A stretch of DNA of 64,000 nt from Candidatus Aenigmatarchaeota archaeon (GCA_016432325.1 CP066684.1:512001-576000); one strand, 5' to 3'. Positions 27,972 to 63,316 are shown, counted from the stretch's first letter. Made by a program: numbers and translations. Notes: generated by a model not told the origin, from the sequence alone.

Positions 27972-28059
27972 GCCCCAGTGGCTCAGTGGTAGAGCGCTTC
28001 CTTGGTATTCAGGAACGAACAGGAAGAAGTCACGCGTTCAATTCGCGTCTGGGGCTCCA
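27972..28059 (+). tRNA. tRNA-Thr(GGU) with 13-nt canonical intron (28008-28020)
   Basis: GCCCCAG...CTTCC TT-GGT-A[intron]A GGAAG...ACGCG TTCAATT CGCGT CTGGGGC T CCA. Confidence 0.95.
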
Positions 28060-55808: not shown

Positions 55809-56324
55809 TCACTTTGCCCGTCTGCCGCGCATCGCGTACTTTGGTCCTTCTGGCGTCTTGACAATCTTTAGGATTTTTCTGTGTCCCGCAAGAACATTGA
55901 GGTAGGGGGCCACTTCGTTCGGCTTGATTTTGTAGCCGGCCTTCTCAGCCCGCTCGACTATATCCGGTATGCCCAAGGCCCTCCTGCTTCTTTTGATGAG
56001 ATCAAACGCGTAGACGCCAGGCCTGAAAGAGTCGCTGTCGCTTTTTGCGCGTCTTCCCGCACGTCGCTGCGGGGTTTCCTGACCGTCTTCCTGTCGAACT
56101 TCATAGTCAAACTCTGTTCTCAGATAATCTCGTAGCTCCTGGTCGCTTTCTGCAATCTTGTAAATCTGCGTTCTCAAGTCCCGCGCATGTGAGTCCAGTT
56201 CCGAAACCCGCAAGACCATGCCTATGCACTCGGCAGCGCTCTGCTCGCGAGGCTCTGCGTATTTGCGTGCTAATCGCTGAGCCTTGTAATCCAAACGTGA
56301 CTTCCTTGGCATTCGATTCCCCAT
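55809..56324 (-). CDS. hypothetical protein, possible C-terminal winged helix
   Basis: 171-aa basic ORF. Confidence 0.6.
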   Translation of the reverse strand: MGNRMPRKSRLDYKAQRLARKYAEPREQSAAECIGMVLRVSELDSHARDLRTQIYKIAESDQELRDYLRTEFDYEVRQEDGQETPQRRAGRRAKSDSDSFRPGVYAFDLIKRSRRALGIPDIVERAEKAGYKIKPNEVAPYLNVLAGHRKILKIVKTPEGPKYAMRGRRAK

Positions 56325-57133: not shown

Positions 57134-58450
57134 TTAGGCGGTTTTGTTGCGCAGGGCGCCAAATCCGGGAATTTCAAACTCGGCCGCTCCCTTGTAGTAG
57201 TCGCGTATCCTGCTGAAGAGTGTTTTAATCTCTGGATTTTCATACGACTGCGTCTTAGTCGCTATTCGTTTCAGGGTTCTGTCGGGATCCTCGTTGAATT
57301 CCACTTGGAAATGTTCGACGCCGACCTTGAATATCAGCTCGGAGGCGTCCGTCCTGCTCCGCTTTGTTGTCGATTCGGAGAAGATCTCTTCAAGATTGTC
57401 ATCACTCAGGGGAAAATCAATCGGTTTCAGATGTTTTCCTATCCTAGGGATGATTCTAGGAAGTTGTTTCGCCAGAGTTTCGGCGTCGGGAAACATATTC
57501 GGCCACTCGCGCGTAAATATTTCGACCGCTTCAGACGTATATCCGTCGAGCGCCAGAGAGGCTATCGCGCCAGCCGCCTTGTTTCTTTCTAGAAACTGGC
57601 CTACTTGGTCTTCTGTGGGAGCGATCTTTCTCCTTAAAACATCGCGCCAGCCGTAGTTTATAGCAGCGCAGTATGCCCCCCTATCTACTTTAAAGAGTTC
57701 GACGGCGCTCAATCCTTCCAAGCCGTTCTCCTTCAAGTATGCGACAAACCCATCCTTCCCCATGGCTTTCCAACGACGCCACTTTGTATGCCGCCGTCTC
57801 AGAACATTCCTCCAGCCATGTCTCCTAGCGGCGTCGTACGCCGCATAATCCTTTTTTATGAGTTCGCCGGGGGTCAACTCGTCCAATCCATTCTCCTTCA
57901 AGTATGCAACAAACCTATCCCTGTCCATTGCCTTCCAGTTCCTACCTTTCTTGATTCTTATCAGAAGATCGGTCCAACAATACCTTCTGGCGGCATCATA
58001 CGCTCCCTTGTCTCTATCGTCAAGCTCCTTCGGACTTAGTCCTTCCAAGCCGTTCTCCTTCAAGTAATTTACAAACCCATCCTTCCCCATGGCTTTCCAA
58101 CGACGCCCTTTCTTCCGTTCCAATTTCAAAAGGTCAAGCCAACCATATACACGCGCGGCTCTGTAAGCTCCCGAATCCATTTCGTTGAGTTCCTGTGGAT
58201 GCACTCCTTCAAATCCGTTCTCCTTCAGGTAGCCGGCAAAATCCTCTTTGGTCATTCTGCTCCAATCTCTCTGCTGGGTTCCAGGTATAACATCAAGCCA
58301 ATCGTATCTTCTAGCGGCCTGGTAGGCCCCCTGGTCTTTTCTACTAAGCTCCCCATGGTTCAGCTTATTCAAACCGTTCTCTTTCAAGTAAGCAACGAAT
58401 CCGTCCTTGTCCATCTCTTTCCAGTTTCTTGGCTGTCGCGCCATGTTCAT
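57134..58450 (-). CDS. tandem-repeat protein (5 repeats plus conserved C-terminal domain)
   Basis: W..M.KDGF..YLKENGL..L...EL...D..AY.AA...GW x5. Confidence 0.9.
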   Translation of the reverse strand: MNMARQPRNWKEMDKDGFVAYLKENGLNKLNHGELSRKDQGAYQAARRYDWLDVIPGTQQRDWSRMTKEDFAGYLKENGFEGVHPQELNEMDSGAYRAARVYGWLDLLKLERKKGRRWKAMGKDGFVNYLKENGLEGLSPKELDDRDKGAYDAARRYCWTDLLIRIKKGRNWKAMDRDRFVAYLKENGLDELTPGELIKKDYAAYDAARRHGWRNVLRRRHTKWRRWKAMGKDGFVAYLKENGLEGLSAVELFKVDRGAYCAAINYGWRDVLRRKIAPTEDQVGQFLERNKAAGAIASLALDGYTSEAVEIFTREWPNMFPDAETLAKQLPRIIPRIGKHLKPIDFPLSDDNLEEIFSESTTKRSRTDASELIFKVGVEHFQVEFNEDPDRTLKRIATKTQSYENPEIKTLFSRIRDYYKGAAEFEIPGFGALRNKTA

Positions 58451-59922
58451 GCCTCTCTCAGTTTCCCGAAGCCCGGTATCTCGAACTCCATCGCGTTTCT
58501 ATAGTATTCGTGGACTCTCTTGAAAATGCTTCTAACTTCGGCCTTCTGTTGCGTGTTCACCATTCGTTCCAGCTCGGAAAGGACAGATCGTGGGTCGGCG
58601 TTGAATGTCGCCTGGTAGTGCTGGACTCCTATCTCATAAACAATTCCAGCGAGTTCCTTCCTGGTTGCTTTCGGCAAGTCCTTTGAAAATATCGTCTGGA
58701 GGCGGTCTTCATTGACCGGAAAATCCAGCGGCTTCAAGTGCTTTCCTATCTTGGGGACTATTCTGGGTAGCTGTTTTGCGAGCGTCGCGGCTACCGGAAA
58801 GGCGTTGGGCCATTCGCGCGCGAGTATGTCAACCACGTCGGAGGCGTAGCCGTCAACTGCCAGCGAGGCTATCGCGCTGGCGGCTTTGTTGTTCGCGAGG
58901 AACTTTTTTGCCTGGGTTTCTCTCTGGGCGATCTGTCTTTTCAACAGATCGAGCCACCCGTGTGTGCGAGCTGCTGCGTATGCCCCGCTATCTTTTCTAG
59001 CAAGTTCGCTGGGCGTCAATGTGTCCCATCCATTCGCTTCTAGGTAAGCAAGAAATTCTTCCCTACCAATATTCTTCCAATCTCTCCTCTTTCGTATTTG
59101 CCTTTTCAAAACGTCAAGCCAGTCATGCCTTAGAGCAGCTCCATACGCTTTATCGTCCCTTTTTTGGAGTTCCTCGGGGCTCAATTCAAACAACCCGCGA
59201 TCCTTGAGATATTCAATAAATCCCTTCTTGCCCATAGTCTCCCAGTAATGTCCTTCTGTCGGAGCCCTCCTTAGGATGTCTGTCCAACCGTATTTCTCGG
59301 CAGCATAACTCGCATGCCTGTCTCGCTTCTTAAGTTCGCCACGACTCAGGCCGGCTAACCCCTTATTCGTCAGGTATTGTTCGAATCCCGCTTTCCCCAA
59401 GTTCTTCCAATCTACCTCTTCTTTATCTCTCTTAGTCCTCACAACGTCAAGCCAGCCGTGATTTTTAGCGGCTTCGTATGCTTTTTTATCGATTGTTTGT
59501 AATTCGCCGCGACTCAATTTGTCTAGGTTTCTTTTTTGCAGATACTTGACAAATCCTTCCTTACCCATCGCACTCCAATTCCTTCCACGTGGCTGCTCCC
59601 TTTTCACGATGCTAATCCAGCCGTTTCTACAGGCGGCAGAGTAGGCTCTCAAATCCCTCGTCTGCAGTTCGCCGCGACTCAACCCATCCAACCCCCTCTC
59701 TTTCAGGTAAGCAACGAATCCCTCCTTGCCCATCCCTTCCCAGTCTATTCGCTCTCTTTTTACAGCATCGATCCAGCCGTGTACCTTTGCGGCTTCGTAG
59801 GCAGCCGGGTCTCTTTTCCTAAATTCCCCACGAGGCAAGCCTTCCAAGCCCCTTTCTGCCAGATATTCGATGAATCCGTTTTTGTCCATCTCTTTCCAAC
59901 GCTGTCTAGCCATGCCGAACAC
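58447..59922 (-). CDS. tandem-repeat protein (6 repeats plus conserved C-terminal domain)
   Basis: Same repeat x6; stop overlaps the downstream start. Confidence 0.9.
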   Translation of the reverse strand: MFGMARQRWKEMDKNGFIEYLAERGLEGLPRGEFRKRDPAAYEAAKVHGWIDAVKRERIDWEGMGKEGFVAYLKERGLDGLSRGELQTRDLRAYSAACRNGWISIVKREQPRGRNWSAMGKEGFVKYLQKRNLDKLSRGELQTIDKKAYEAAKNHGWLDVVRTKRDKEEVDWKNLGKAGFEQYLTNKGLAGLSRGELKKRDRHASYAAEKYGWTDILRRAPTEGHYWETMGKKGFIEYLKDRGLFELSPEELQKRDDKAYGAALRHDWLDVLKRQIRKRRDWKNIGREEFLAYLEANGWDTLTPSELARKDSGAYAAARTHGWLDLLKRQIAQRETQAKKFLANNKAASAIASLAVDGYASDVVDILAREWPNAFPVAATLAKQLPRIVPKIGKHLKPLDFPVNEDRLQTIFSKDLPKATRKELAGIVYEIGVQHYQATFNADPRSVLSELERMVNTQQKAEVRSIFKRVHEYYRNAMEFEIPGFGKLREA

Positions 59923-61060
59923 CTTTCATCTTCCCAAATCCAGGTATCTCGAACTCGGCCACAGCACTGTAGTATTCATGTATTCTACAGAAGATGTTTC
60001 TCACTCTCGGATTTTCATACGATTGCGTCTTGGCGTGCATTTTCTCCAGTGTTGCTGCTGGGTCTCTGTTGAATTGAAGTTGGAAATATTCGACGCCGAC
60101 ATTCAAGATTATGTCGGACGCTAGCATGTGGACTCTTTGTGGAACGTGTTCCGAAAATATTAGTTCAAGGTTTTCATTGTTTATGGGGAAATCCAGTGGT
60201 TTCACGTGCTTGCCTACACTGGGCACTATTCTAGGAAGTTGCCTCGCCAGCTCTTCTGCGTCAGGAAACACGCTTGGCCACTCCAGCGCCAATATGTCAG
60301 CCACATCGGAAATGTATCCATCGAACGCAAGTGAAGCTATCGCGTTAGCACTCTGGTTGCTCTCTAGGAATTGCTTTGCCTGCCTTTCTCTCGGGAACGT
60401 CTTTCTCTTCAGTATGTCCAACCAGCCGTGTTTACGAGCGGCTTTGTATGCACCGGGATCCTTTTCAGAGAGGCCTGTCGGGCTCAAGTTCTCCCATCCG
60501 TTCTTTTGCAGATAGTCAATGAAACCCCTCCTCCCCATCTCCTCCCAGTCCCTCGGCGCCCGGCGCGTTCTTTTCAATGCGTCCAACCAGCCGTGTTCGC
60601 GAGCGGCATCATAGGCGCCCGGATCCCTTCTCGCAAGCTCCTTGGGACCCAGCTCCCCCAGCCCTTCTTCCTCCATATAGGAGACGAAGCCCTCTCTGTC
60701 CATCTTCCCCCAGTTCCTTGCTTTCCGTTTCCCTCTCTTCAACACATCCAGCCAGCCGTACTTTTTAGCGGCACGATACGCATCTCCGTCTCTCTTCGCA
60801 AGTTCTGGGGGGCCTACATCGGCCAATCCGTTCTCTCTTAAATATTCGACGAACCTTTCCTTTCCCGTAACGCCCAAGTCCCTCCTGTCTGGGTTCTTTG
60901 CCTTCAAATCCATCCAAGATTCGTGGGCGGCGTCGTATACTAGAGGATTTCTTCTTCGAACCGTTGCTATGTCCTGTTCGTCCATTCCCCTCTCTTTCAG
61001 AAAACCGACGAATCCATCTTCGCCCATTTCCTTCCAGAACTCTTTGTTCCGCGTCATCAC
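59906..61060 (-). CDS. tandem-repeat protein (4 repeats plus conserved C-terminal domain)
   Basis: Same repeat x4; start overlaps the helicase stop. Confidence 0.9.
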   Translation of the reverse strand: MMTRNKEFWKEMGEDGFVGFLKERGMDEQDIATVRRRNPLVYDAAHESWMDLKAKNPDRRDLGVTGKERFVEYLRENGLADVGPPELAKRDGDAYRAAKKYGWLDVLKRGKRKARNWGKMDREGFVSYMEEEGLGELGPKELARRDPGAYDAAREHGWLDALKRTRRAPRDWEEMGRRGFIDYLQKNGWENLSPTGLSEKDPGAYKAARKHGWLDILKRKTFPRERQAKQFLESNQSANAIASLAFDGYISDVADILALEWPSVFPDAEELARQLPRIVPSVGKHVKPLDFPINNENLELIFSEHVPQRVHMLASDIILNVGVEYFQLQFNRDPAATLEKMHAKTQSYENPRVRNIFCRIHEYYSAVAEFEIPGFGKMKGVRHG

Positions 61061-63135
61061 TTCCCCCTCTTCCTGTCGCCTGCAAAGCTCATCTTGATGA
61101 CCCCGGGCGCGGCCTTGCCGCTCTTTCTCAATACGTAGAGGTCCATTCTGCTCGAACTCACGTTTGCGTGGTTGTCCTCACACTCGAAGCCGTAGAGCCT
61201 GAAGTTGTCCATCAGGTCGTTTCTGTCGGCATCGTCAAAATGCTGCGAAGGCACGACTACGATGGCCGAACCGTCGGACTTGAGAACGCGGTTGACCTCC
61301 TGCAGAACGATGGAACGCTCCTTTTTCGGCTCGGCTATGTGGAGGGCCAGAGAGAGGTTGACGAATCCAAAGCTACCATCGCGGTAGGGAAGCGACGAGA
61401 ACGTTCCTTCGGCGTGTGTACTATATGTGAGGCCGAGCTTGCCGCGACCGACCTTGAGGTTGGCTCTGTTGATGTCCAATATATAGGTGGGATGCCCACC
61501 GTGATAAGCGAGCATGCCCGCGCCGCCCGCGAGGTCGAGCCAAGGCTCGCTTGGAGCCAGCTTCTCTGCCACAGGCACGTATATGCTGGCCGCCTTCTTC
61601 GCGCCGCTGTAGTTCGGGTACATCTCGGCTATCTGCTTGGCGACCTCCGGATTCTTTTTAATTCTTCGCAAGGCTCCATCGGTTCCTATGCTCGGCCACT
61701 TCATGTAGTAGTCGAGGACTATCCTGTTGGTCGTCTTGATGGAGTTTTTAATCTTCGGGACCGTGCTCCGCCCGTCCATGTTCAAGAGGTCCTCTCTGGT
61801 TAGCTTGTAGCCTGACATGAGGTAGTCGACCACGCGTTCCTTCGCCTTGAGCATGTCGTACTGGGCCTGATCGAGAGATTTCCTTGCATCGCCCGGATAC
61901 TGGGCAAGGATGTTGTAGACGGTCACGCGCTCCTTCCTCATCTCCCCCGGGCGGACGGTTCTCTTTATGCGCTGGTTGTATTCGGCCGGTGTCCACGGAA
62001 GAGATAAATTCACGACCGCTGTGGCGGCCGTCAGGTCCACGCCCTCGTTCATGACTCCCGTGGAGATAAGAACCTTTGCGCGCGGATCCGTCTGGAACTT
62101 CCGTCTAATACTTTCCCGCTCGCCGTTGGCCACGTCCACATCGCCACTGATTGATACGGCACCATAGTTGGCGTAGCGTCTCTCGAGCTTGCCGACGATG
62201 CCTTCCTTGAGATGCGTGAAGACCAAGACCTTTCCACGCTTCGTTTCGCTCTCCACTATCTCGTCGAGCTTTTCGTACTTCGGCGAGACTGCCAGACCGT
62301 TTGTGATAAGGCTCTGGTCGGCAAGGGATGTATCGAGCAAAATCTTTTCCAGTTGTTTTATCTTCTTGCCGGGATGTAGCCGCTTCTCCAAGACGTCGTT
62401 GTAGGCCTCGAGCCAGCGACCGTCCATTTCAAGCATGACGTTCCGCTCCTTCCACTGGGGGAGTGCGTGACCTATGTAGTCTTGGGCGTTGCCGCGAATC
62501 ATTTTCCTCTGTATCAGGTGCTTGAAAACCTGAGGATCGTTCCAATAGATTGCCTCAAACTTCTGCCTCGCCTCCCTGTTTATGTCAGGGCTGTCTGAGA
62601 GCGGATATTCTTGAGGCTCCAACAGATGCATCAGCATATAGACATCGCTGATGGTATTGGGAACCGGTGTTCCGGAAAGTAGCGTAACGTACTCAGGATC
62701 TTCCGCGAGGCTGCGGATACTCTGGCTCCTGATGGCGCTGGGATTCTTGGTGTTGTGAACCTCGTCGAGAATGATATGGTCGAACCCATTCCTTTTCATC
62801 TTTCTGATAAACCCGTCCTTCCCGTGGGAGAGGAAGTCATAGTGAACTATCGTCCATTCGCTCGTGCCGTCCCATTTCTGGTAGCTGTCAACCGTCAGGT
62901 CAAAGACTTCCTGACCTCTAGGATATGCCCATGTCTCGATTTCATCCTTCCATTTAGACTTGACCGAGTTTGGGCAGACCACCAGGGCCTTTGTGTCGGT
63001 GTCATCACGTCTTATGACATTGTCGACGAAGACTGCCTGAGCTGATTTGTACATGCCCATGTCATGGGCTATAAGGAACCTCTTCTTCTCATACGCGCTC
63101 TTGACGCTGACATATTGAAATGGCTGCAGTTTCAT
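61057..63135 (-). CDS. SNF2-family helicase fused to class I SAM-dependent methyltransferase
   Basis: HDMGMYKS, LDEVH, LSGTP, EGVDL, Q...R..RPG; C-terminal WLDLAGGAG, LPY.DGSF, EVNRVLK.DG. Confidence 0.9.
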   Translation of the reverse strand: MKLQPFQYVSVKSAYEKKRFLIAHDMGMYKSAQAVFVDNVIRRDDTDTKALVVCPNSVKSKWKDEIETWAYPRGQEVFDLTVDSYQKWDGTSEWTIVHYDFLSHGKDGFIRKMKRNGFDHIILDEVHNTKNPSAIRSQSIRSLAEDPEYVTLLSGTPVPNTISDVYMLMHLLEPQEYPLSDSPDINREARQKFEAIYWNDPQVFKHLIQRKMIRGNAQDYIGHALPQWKERNVMLEMDGRWLEAYNDVLEKRLHPGKKIKQLEKILLDTSLADQSLITNGLAVSPKYEKLDEIVESETKRGKVLVFTHLKEGIVGKLERRYANYGAVSISGDVDVANGERESIRRKFQTDPRAKVLISTGVMNEGVDLTAATAVVNLSLPWTPAEYNQRIKRTVRPGEMRKERVTVYNILAQYPGDARKSLDQAQYDMLKAKERVVDYLMSGYKLTREDLLNMDGRSTVPKIKNSIKTTNRIVLDYYMKWPSIGTDGALRRIKKNPEVAKQIAEMYPNYSGAKKAASIYVPVAEKLAPSEPWLDLAGGAGMLAYHGGHPTYILDINRANLKVGRGKLGLTYSTHAEGTFSSLPYRDGSFGFVNLSLALHIAEPKKERSIVLQEVNRVLKSDGSAIVVVPSQHFDDADRNDLMDNFRLYGFECEDNHANVSSSRMDLYVLRKSGKAAPGVIKMSFAGDRKRGK

Positions 63136-63316
63136 GTCTACCCCAAACGGTATGGATAGGAAGTTTTAAATAGGTCACCACCTATGGACGACGACGTCTA
63201 ATTGACATCAATGGATCCACCACAAGCTGTGCCTATAGAAGCAACTGTCTGTTCGGCCGATGGTCGACCCATAGACTCTCTCACTCCGATATTAATATGG
63301 TTAGAGAATATCATTC

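Follow-up and report, generated by a model that had tools for sequence, protein, structure and literature searches.

A predicted SNF2 translocase-methyltransferase with three proposed repeat-containing adaptor proteins in a Candidatus Aenigmatarchaeota archaeon

Type I restriction-modification systems (HsdS, HsdM and HsdR) and Type ISP enzymes combine an SF2 DNA motor with a methyltransferase that is guided by an exchangeable specificity part; a single Type I enzyme may draw on several specificity genes. In DISARM class 1 (DrmD, DrmMI and DrmA/B/C), an accessory locus with a patchy distribution, an SNF2 ATPase is found together with a methyltransferase; other SNF2-containing defence systems are BREX (BrxHII), Zorya (ZorD) and Dpd (DpdE). 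The polyvalent proteins (phrog_62; P1 DarB-like), giant multi-domain proteins located on mobile elements and lacking separate adaptors, presumably carry an SNF2 domain and a methylase in one polypeptide.

The window, a 64-kb stretch from the genome of a groundwater archaeon (0.87 Mb, single contig, 90% complete), contains an operon that partly resembles each of these systems. It spans positions 57134-63135 on the minus strand and was read from the sequence as four ORFs with overlapping junctions and a TATA-like box ahead of them:

63163..63172, minus strand: TATA-like box and candidate promoter, TATTTAAAAC, read directly, ~32 nt upstream of the gene A ATG at 63135
61057..63135, minus strand: gene A (P0001, 692 aa), SNF2 translocase-methyltransferase fusion, the motor
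61771..63135, minus strand: SNF2 ATPase part of gene A, aa 1-455 (PF00176, PF00271)
61060..61698, minus strand: class I SAM methyltransferase part of gene A, aa ~480-692 (PF08241, PF13649)
59906..61060, minus strand: gene B (P0002, 384 aa), adaptor comprising 4 repeats (aa 8-220, nt 60401-61039), followed by the C-domain at aa 225-384 (nt 59909-60388)
58447..59922, minus strand: gene C (P0003, 491 aa), adaptor comprising 6 repeats (aa 8-330, nt 58933-59901), followed by the C-domain at aa 336-491 (nt 58450-58917)
57134..58450, minus strand: gene D (P0004, 438 aa), adaptor comprising 5 repeats (aa 9-275, nt 57626-58426), followed by the C-domain at aa 281-438 (nt 57137-57610)

The original prediction, made from the sequence alone, had described four same-strand genes with overlapping stop and start codons, and all three junctions do overlap. 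At the A/B junction (GTGATG) the overlap with the TGA stop amounts to 4 nt if gene B starts at GTG and to 1 nt if it starts at ATG, the B/C junction ATGGCTAG is an 8-nt overlap provided that gene C starts at ATG, and genes C and D share an ATGA overlap. A promoter box had been placed at about 63165; a box is indeed present at 63172-63163, but it reads TATTTAAAAC and not literally TTTAAATA. Archaeal promoter geometry is consistent with a promoter role for this box.

Protein A, proposed earlier to be an SNF2 helicase fused to a class I SAM methyltransferase, matched SNF2-rel_dom (PF00176, E 5e-23, 82 bits against a cut-off of 24.9), Helicase_C (PF00271, E 1e-20, 74 against 23.5) and Methyltransf_11 (PF08241, E 1e-8, 36 against 21.2). 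All three matches exceed the Pfam cut-offs and bear out the fusion; a ResIII match reflects the generic SF2 fold only. Protein A has the SNF2-family ATPase motifs DEVH, SGTP and Q..R..R, and across 32 homologues DEVH, SGTP and QRIKRTVRPGE do not vary. The Walker A motif deviates, with GMYKS instead of GLGKT. This exchange of the Walker A glycine for Tyr or Phe is common to the closest clade, to which gene A belongs (consensus GM(F/Y)K(T/S)), and could result in weaker ATPase activity. The best solved relative of the SNF2 part is the Rad54-like SNF2 protein of Sulfolobus (1Z63, E 2.5e-19). About 35 full-length fused homologues were found, with identities of 30-50%.

The C-terminal part of protein A has the features of a class I SAM methyltransferase of the Methyltransf_11 type, namely motif I (LDLAGGAG) and the acidic ILD, and residues D534, G538 and D554 are invariant across 32 homologues. 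Its nearest structures are UbiE/Methyltransf_11-like, with Atlas structural neighbours at TM 0.68-0.75 and weak matches only in the PDB. In the Pfam search with the four proteins no match to N6_Mtase, MethyltransfD12 or N6_N4_Mtase appeared at E up to 1, and residues 460-692 contain neither the (D/N/S)PP(Y/F/W) motif nor any other PP-containing motif. The methyltransferase is not of the DNA amino-methylase (N6A/N4C) type and resembles small-molecule and rRNA-type class I enzymes rather than DNA methylases. Its homologues have weak precomputed matches to Rrp8 (PF05148) and Bmt2 (PF11968), two rRNA m1A methyltransferase families.

Genes B, C and D had been described as paralogues with 4, 6 and 5 tandem repeats of ~55 aa and a shared C-terminal domain of ~160 aa. 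A repeat HMM recovered exactly these numbers of units (each E 1e-21 to 1e-29), and the three C-domains share 51-52% mutual identity and all end in FEIPGFG. This pattern of repeats and C-domains far exceeds chance, and both elements are confined to the operon within the host genome. The repeat, here called type-1, was modelled as a unit of three helices with low-confidence basic linkers (three-repeat model of gene D, pLDDT 81). Whereas the solenoids of TALE, PUF and PPR proteins form one continuous superhelix, this AlphaFold2 model consists of separate, linker-joined three-helix units (linkers with pLDDT below 50, pTM 0.39), an arrangement still compatible with ordering on nucleic acid. The arrays have net charges of +7, +17 and +16, and the most variable repeat positions (28, 29, 32 and 36) lie on the face formed by helix 2, the turn and helix 3.

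No Pfam family or solved fold matched the type-1 repeat; the Foldseek comparison suggested with the original prediction was run and gave no significant match for the repeat (best E 1.5), nor did VIA give a structural match (best Z 3.8). No relation to HTH units was detectable (hhalign Prob 0.7%), and alignment to a GYW/HNH_repeat-like profile reached Prob 15% (E 0.0017). PF18780 (HNH_repeat) gave no match in genes B, C and D; sister adaptors match it at E 7e-29. In a profile search for longer proteins, the type-1 repeat occurred in DPANN arrays only, accompanied by no nuclease or other informative domain. Within the C-domain family the array, of 2-11 units in each protein, is built from type-1 repeats, from GYW/HNH_repeat-like repeats or from HTH_23/28 units in tandem, and one adaptor relative has a weak LPD24 match. 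HTH and HNH_repeat arrays are recognised as DNA-binding, and the equivalent position of the type-1 arrays, together with their charge, suggests that these bind DNA as well.

The C-domain of gene C was modelled as an all-helical domain (pLDDT 88.9). It matched no Pfam family or solved fold: the best PDB profile match was a designed protein (E 0.005), Foldseek gave no significant match (best E 0.6), the VIA-wide search reached Z 6.0 over 73 residues at best, and the Atlas feature search returned no usable match, with structure rows at TM 0.48 or below. Docking of this domain onto the helicase-methyltransferase had been postulated, with interaction modelling as one check. In all three runs the predicted complex of protein A with the gene C C-domain had an ipSAE of 0.68, whereas the best of three controls stayed at 0.00; of 80 solved complexes 58 attain this mark, and of 110 mismatched pairs 2 do, counts that are rough here because custom alignments were used. 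The runs agree on at least 87% of contacts, with a partner pLDDT of at least 72. The predicted interface comprises C-domain residues 113-120 and 150-161, which hold the near-invariant columns F116, N117, P120, Y150, I158, P159 and G160, and this coincidence with the invariant residues supports the predicted docking.

Linkage and fusion elsewhere, a further check on the docking, were both found. The motor adjoins one or two same-strand C-domain proteins at all eight other loci inspected, and a scan of species-representative genomes covered 24 archaeal loci, 21 of which show a same-strand C-domain protein next to an SNF2-methyltransferase; contig ends account for two of the three exceptions. Related loci were gathered with an alignment of the motor rather than of the C-domain. 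The linkage is kept across DPANN lineages in both gene orders, and the loci lie in different chromosomal contexts. In one DPANN protein (P0028) the two parts are fused directly, the C-domain at residues 7-152 standing immediately ahead of the SNF2 start. Among 33 homologues with a readable frame from CPR/Patescibacteria, all but one carry an N-terminal extension of 180-1100 aa; in the exception the contig starts 156 nt ahead of the match. Over its last 190 aa the CPR extension is matched by the C-domain profile (142 columns, hhalign Prob 94.8%, E 5e-8), which places the C-domain in cis, directly ahead of the SNF2 domain. The system thus occurs in both DPANN archaea and CPR bacteria.

As defined from the loci collected here, the system consists of the motor fusion and at least one adjacent same-strand protein ending in the FN..P...Y...IPG docking domain, and the operon has this composition. 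Loci carry one to three adaptors. In the C-domain tree the sequences cluster by locus, those of genes B, C and D forming one clade within the family; this clustering and the three unrelated repeat types at the array position lend support to the earlier idea of interchangeable specificity modules. An initial word-index search had found only the operon's own adaptor proteins, which proved to be an artefact of the index, as an exhaustive search gave 65 representatives; single-sequence tblastn against 60 relatives gave no match. Most relatives have a third gene, either a DUF488-N3a gene downstream or a gene for an AAG-like protein upstream. The host copy has three adaptors and neither of these genes, and DUF488 (PF04343) and the AAG-like family (PF02245) had no match in the whole host genome. 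For DUF488 we found no functional literature and, by sequence, no solved relative. The C-domain is sporadic, occurring in 4 of 371 genomes of the phylum; a genome of the same genus (73% complete) gave no match, its contig ending just past aEF-2. GC across the locus falls to 0.50-0.51, compared with ~0.55 elsewhere, and this decrease, together with the sporadic distribution, points to an accessory character.

With Type I and Type ISP enzymes the operon shares homology in the SF2 fold alone. It lacks HsdS (PF01420), HsdM/N6_Mtase (PF02384), a nuclease and the (D/N/S)PP(Y/F) motif; neither HsdR nor an Mrr/PD-(D/E)xK nuclease was among the Pfam matches of the four proteins, and the operon as a whole yielded no nuclease, as anticipated from its motifs. 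Specificity would reside in 2-11 mini-domains plus a docking domain, in contrast to the two target-recognition domains of Type I enzymes, and the motor is of SNF2 type rather than HsdR type. The PADLOC models DrmD, ZorD and DpdE match the helicase part, but the DrmD score (NF038317) of 81.4 bits lies far below the cut-off of 610, and the operon has no DrmA, DrmB, DrmC or DrmE neighbours and no PglX or ZorABC partners. It further differs from these systems in the fusion of helicase and methylase, in the class of the methylase and in the adaptors, which are foreign to them. Genes B-D had no PADLOC match. The best profile match for the motor is phrog_62 (E 3.5e-62), to which the helicase part alone aligns; the match to the DarB-like phrog_10089 is weak. 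Searches of PADLOC, NCBIfam and Pfam matched the operon to no known system and we found no published description of one, in agreement with the novelty first claimed for it.

On the basis of domain content, conserved linkage, fusion and predicted docking, each established computationally, we consider it somewhat more probable than its opposite that the operon encodes a split, adaptor-directed DNA motor-methyltransferase with genes B-D as alternative targeting adaptors, and we favour a role in conflict. Protein A would act as an SNF2-type double-strand DNA translocase with a C-terminal SAM-dependent class I methyltransferase. Proteins B, C and D, net-basic strings of 4-6 three-helix units, would most likely read nucleic acid, probably DNA, while the invariant FN..P, Y and IPG motifs of their constant all-helical docking domain would bind the N-terminal lobe of the motor. 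One motor could thereby be given three specificities, much as a type I enzyme can work with several HsdS subunits. After tethering, the methyltransferase would be carried by ATP-driven translocation to its substrate on or along the DNA, be it a DNA base methylated in a non-canonical manner or a DNA-bound protein, and the outcome in genetic conflict may be the marking or disabling of foreign DNA or the marking of self DNA. DNA binding by the type-1 repeat, the methylation substrate and the biological role are the parts that we infer. The genetic-conflict role is favoured on account of the system's rare, patchy occurrence and of reading modules that are exchanged and duplicated from one lineage to the next; action against mobile genetic elements is one candidate only. 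Counting against the proposal, there is no obvious means of distinguishing self from non-self, and it is further weakened by the housekeeping neighbours, by the missing nuclease, PADLOC match of the adaptors and third gene, by a type-1 repeat for which neither profile nor structure comparison detected kinship with HTH units, HNH_repeat or a solved fold, by a methyltransferase unlike DNA methylases and by the altered Walker A motif.

If the model holds, an undescribed motor-methyltransferase is common to DPANN and CPR, the two large radiations of ultra-small cells, most of them symbionts. Its specificity would be supplied by arrays of mini-domains that plug in by way of a dedicated docking domain, one whose fold is not recognised. 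The same architecture would exist in cis in CPR and split into exchangeable subunits in DPANN, and would offer a new route to sequence-directed marking of DNA or chromatin in prokaryotes as well as a set of modular, possibly decodable DNA-reading repeats. A further-reaching version, possible but in our view doubtful, is that ultra-small archaea and bacteria possess a programmable writer machine, in which the units read DNA by a simple position-wise code and steer the SNF2 motor, its non-canonical methyltransferase placing an unusual mark, for example a ring-nitrogen methylpurine on DNA or a modification of chromatin protein; at sister loci a catalytically disabled AAG-like protein would then read this mark, or DUF488 would process it. 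This would represent a targeted DNA-marking system of a new class, either immune or epigenetic, whose adaptors could be re-engineered.

The operon could instead serve the host chromosome, with transcription-factor-like adaptors recruiting a remodeller-methyltransferase to chromosomal sites, where chromatin proteins such as histones or Alba are remodelled or methylated, free of any conflict with foreign DNA. The SNF2 part is closest to archaeal Rad54-like and eukaryotic ISWI/CHD remodellers, the methyltransferase is not of DNA type, many adaptors are regulator-like HTH arrays, the operon sits amid housekeeping genes and its sequence is invariant in four samples of one study, all of which would suit such a task. 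We nonetheless judge it unlikely in view of the very patchy distribution, which leaves out the same-genus genome, the fast turnover and change of type of the reading arrays and the GC content below that of the surrounding DNA. An RNA- or RNP-directed machine, whose repeats read RNA in the manner of PUF or PPR proteins while the rRNA-type methyltransferase modifies RNA and the SF2 motor remodels RNA or RNPs, would accord with the Rrp8 and Bmt2 matches, with the lack of a DNA methylase motif in gene A and with helical units bearing variable surface positions. It is improbable, however, given that SNF2 enzymes are generally known as double-strand DNA translocases, as would fit the closest structure 1Z63, that equivalent adaptors carry DNA-binding HTH arrays or homing-endonuclease-associated repeats, and that relatives pair with an AAG-like protein that binds DNA lesions.

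Little probability is likewise given to a protective module derived from a mobile element and since domesticated or integrated, similar to the cores of polyvalent or DarB-type anti-restriction proteins of phages and plasmids, which combine SNF2 with a methylase. The phrog matches of the helicase part, the LPD24 match in one adaptor relative and the low GC of the locus agree with this origin; yet among 50,697 phage records only the helicase part found matches (at most 69% coverage and 26% identity) and the C-domain none, neither an integrase nor a tRNA target or virus gene was present beside the operon, and the related loci occupy different chromosomal contexts. That the proteins form no functional complex at all, the repeat proteins being unrelated neighbours such as structural or surface proteins in a coincidental gene order, would be in keeping with adaptors that match nothing in Pfam, PADLOC or NCBIfam. 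This reading is contradicted by the linkage, conserved in DPANN lineages in both gene orders, and by the cis fusions; with overlapping genes and a docking score well above the controls, we regard it as very improbable. The adaptor-directed DNA motor-methyltransferase remains the reading that we prefer.

The surroundings of the operon are not a defence island. Its neighbours are the housekeeping genes for aEF-2, a class I aminoacyl-tRNA synthetase and aRF1, along with genes for a glyoxalase-like protein and for a 171-aa protein of no assigned family. The downstream 171-aa and 180-aa proteins showed no similarity to small neighbours at other loci. The gene downstream of the operon is the glyoxalase-like one, with an A/T-rich box of its own. 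In one study, four groundwater DNA runs yielded contigs with the same sequence as the window.

The locus consists of four minus-strand open reading frames occupying 57134-63135, with the overlapping junctions GTGATG, ATGGCTAG and ATGA, as the original prediction had read it. They encode one motor and three adaptors, and two small genes separate them from the aEF-2 gene:

61057-63135, minus strand: gene A, motor P0001 (692 aa), SNF2 ATPase-class I methyltransferase fusion
59906-61060, minus strand: gene B, adaptor P0002
58447-59922, minus strand: gene C, adaptor P0003
57134-58450, minus strand: gene D, adaptor P0004
56397-56939, minus strand: glyoxalase/bleomycin-resistance-fold gene (E 1.3e-9)
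55809-56324, minus strand: basic 171-aa protein without family

A box, TATTTAAAAC, is located ~32 nt upstream of the operon's first ATG. The glyoxalase-like gene starts ~195 nt beyond the gene D stop (57134 to 56939) and has an A/T-rich box of its own (TTAAATAATAATAT); the operon therefore comprises four genes only. Neither of the two downstream products resembled the small neighbours of sister loci. The operon is surrounded by archaeal aEF-2, aRF1 and class I aminoacyl-tRNA synthetase genes, and its GC content falls to 0.50-0.51 versus ~0.55 elsewhere. The host genome is archaeal and consists of one contig (874,869 bp, 90% completeness); the DNA of the window is present in groundwater metagenomes, and homologues of the locus's proteins originate from Woese-, Pace- and Nanoarchaeota MAGs. 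In four of four groundwater runs the short-read contigs break inside gene D, at 57744-57780 and 58078-58100. Both breaks fall in near-identical repeat DNA, so that the repeat number in gene D is supported by the long contig alone.

P0001 matches SNF2-rel_dom, Helicase_C and Methyltransf_11/25 (Pfam), which bears out the proposed fusion of an SNF2 helicase to a class I SAM methyltransferase. In profile searches it scored best against phrog_62, a phage helicase family (E 3.5e-62); among solved structures, the Rad54-like SNF2 domain of Sulfolobus (1Z63) came closest. It retains the Walker lysine as well as the DEVH, SGTP and Q..R..R motifs. The usual SNF2 Walker A sequence is DEMGLGKT; P0001 reads GMYKS, in the context DMGMYKS (63046-63066, codons 24-30). 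GM(F/Y)K(T/S) is common to the closest clade (L026-L033, L040), and GxGK(T/S) is found in more distant archaeal (subtype B) and all CPR homologues. The methyltransferase is of a generic class I kind (UbiE/Methyltransf_11-like), and its SAM-binding motifs are conserved (D534, G538 and D554 are invariant across 32 homologues). No DNA amino-methylase motif was found in it by sequence, Pfam or structure comparisons, and some of its homologues weakly match rRNA m1A methyltransferase families.

The adaptors carry four, six and five tandem repeats, respectively, and share a C-domain, both as anticipated; pairwise identity of the C-domains is 51-52%. Searches against Pfam, NCBIfam, PADLOC and PHROGs gave no convincing match for any of the three. 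The C-domain was modelled confidently (pLDDT 88.9, pTM 0.82, 56-sequence alignment) as an all-helical fold whose last element, at the IPG motif, is a short beta-hairpin, and the model had no significant counterpart among solved or Atlas structures. The repeat was modelled as a three-helix unit (pLDDT 81; pTM 0.39 for the array). Basic linkers of low confidence connect the units, so that the modelled array resembles a string of beads. All three arrays are basic in net charge, and the most variable repeat positions (28, 29, 32 and 36) lie around the helix 2-turn-helix 3 face.

Homologues of the C-domain are rare. An exhaustive search of 1.84 billion proteins yielded 65 representatives, in which the domain is nearly always C-terminal, preceded by 0-600 aa. 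The preceding array is the type-1 unit of the window's adaptors in ~17 representatives, a GYW unit in ~22 (several matching Pfam HNH_repeat, E down to 7e-29), or a series of 5-8 HTH_23/28 units; a few members lack any array. As the type-1 array holds the position otherwise occupied by recognised DNA-binding modules and its partner is a dsDNA translocase, we infer by analogy that it would read DNA. Profile comparisons of the type-1 repeat with the GYW and HTH units demonstrated no relationship. Loci encode one to three adaptors, sometimes of mixed array types (L010, L024). In the C-domain tree, adaptors from one locus group together, a pattern consistent with lineage-specific duplication or with co-evolution with the cognate motor. 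Three metagenomic and Micrarchaeota proteins (P0192, P0194 and P0195) carry 4-10 type-1-like repeats without the FEIPG docking domain, their C-termini being short, unrelated tails of acidic or helical character. In the metagenomic P0170 (543 aa), three type-1 repeats are followed by a C-domain that gives way, after two thirds of its length, to an unrelated C-terminal region; either chimeric assembly or decay of an adaptor may account for this protein.

Linkage of the C-domain to SNF2-methyltransferases holds in other genomes. Scanning species-representative genomes with the motor alignment gave 72 loci; a same-strand C-domain ORF lies beside the motor in 21 of the 24 archaeal ones, and two of the remaining three are contig ends. 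At L008, L010 and L012, found through motor homologues, a repeat plus C-domain gene lies directly downstream of the motor gene and overlaps it (L010 has two adaptors). Conversely, at L022-L025, found through adaptors, the motor is directly upstream. Two subtypes can be distinguished. Subtype A, to which the window's locus belongs, has motors 40-50% identical to P0001 with an aromatic Walker A and the order motor, adaptor(s) and usually DUF488-N3a. This gene ('active subclade', ~120-140 aa) directly follows the last adaptor in nine loci (L008, L010, L022, L024, L025, L026, L027, L029 and L040); we found no functional literature on DUF488-N3a. Subtype B motors are 30-36% identical to P0001 and lie behind an AAG-like gene and an adaptor, in that order, sometimes with further adaptors after the motor. 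Genome G152 shows this reversed arrangement (AAG-like gene, adaptor, motor). AAG/MPG-like genes accompany L021 (8553-9158, minus strand), L035-L037, L039, L043, L044 and L048. Their products read (E/Q)T(A/G)AY versus ETEAY in human AAG; the Ala or Gly at the position of the catalytic Glu125 suggests that they serve as 'readers', binding lesions or bases, and not as glycosylases. Neither a DUF488 nor an AAG-like gene was found in the window's genome (90% complete).

The two components also occur fused. In P0028 (866 aa) the C-domain (residues 7-152) ends about ten residues ahead of the SNF2 start. Among the CPR/Patescibacteria motor homologues (~25% identical), 32 of the 33 with a readable frame have 180-1100 additional in-frame N-terminal residues; the contig of the exception begins 156 nt before the match. 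In a profile comparison, the 190 residues directly ahead of the CPR SNF2 domain matched the C-domain over 142 columns (hhalign Prob 94.8%, E 5e-8); some extensions contain HTH matches or their own tandem repeats. An array/C-domain/SNF2/methyltransferase architecture is therefore found in cis in CPR, and in DPANN it is split between proteins.

Docking of the C-domain onto the helicase-methyltransferase, as originally proposed, was supported computationally. The predicted complex reached an ipSAE of 0.68 in three of three runs (best of three controls 0.00; alignments for both partners). Among 80 solved complexes, 58 attained this mark, and among 110 mismatched pairs, two did so; these counts are only rough here because our own alignments were used. 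Contacts agreed between runs by at least 87%, with partner pLDDT of at least 72. They involve near-invariant C-domain columns (113-120 and 150-161) and motor residues 3-12, 36-43, 71-72, 201-220 and 441-443. The predicted geometry agrees with the cis fusions, in which the C-domain end abuts the motor N-terminus, and the model supports binding of the C-domain to the motor. Motor residues 36-43 lie on the helix after the Walker A loop.

In its working mode the system resembles a type I enzyme served by more than one specificity subunit. No described system matched it on its defining features, and no description of it was found in the searchable literature. Within the phylum, 4 of 371 genomes had the C-domain, which was found neither in the same-genus genome (73% complete) nor in phage records. 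We favour a conflict-type function because the distribution is patchy, the reading modules turn over and the helicase has conflict-associated relatives. The role may instead lie in chromatin or regulation, since the operon sits among housekeeping genes, lacks a nuclease and encodes a methylase of non-DNA type. Elsewhere in the 64-kb window, the sole ARAGORN tRNA call (27972-28059, plus strand) is of undetermined identity, with an anticodon of four bases (gtat) placed at position 34.
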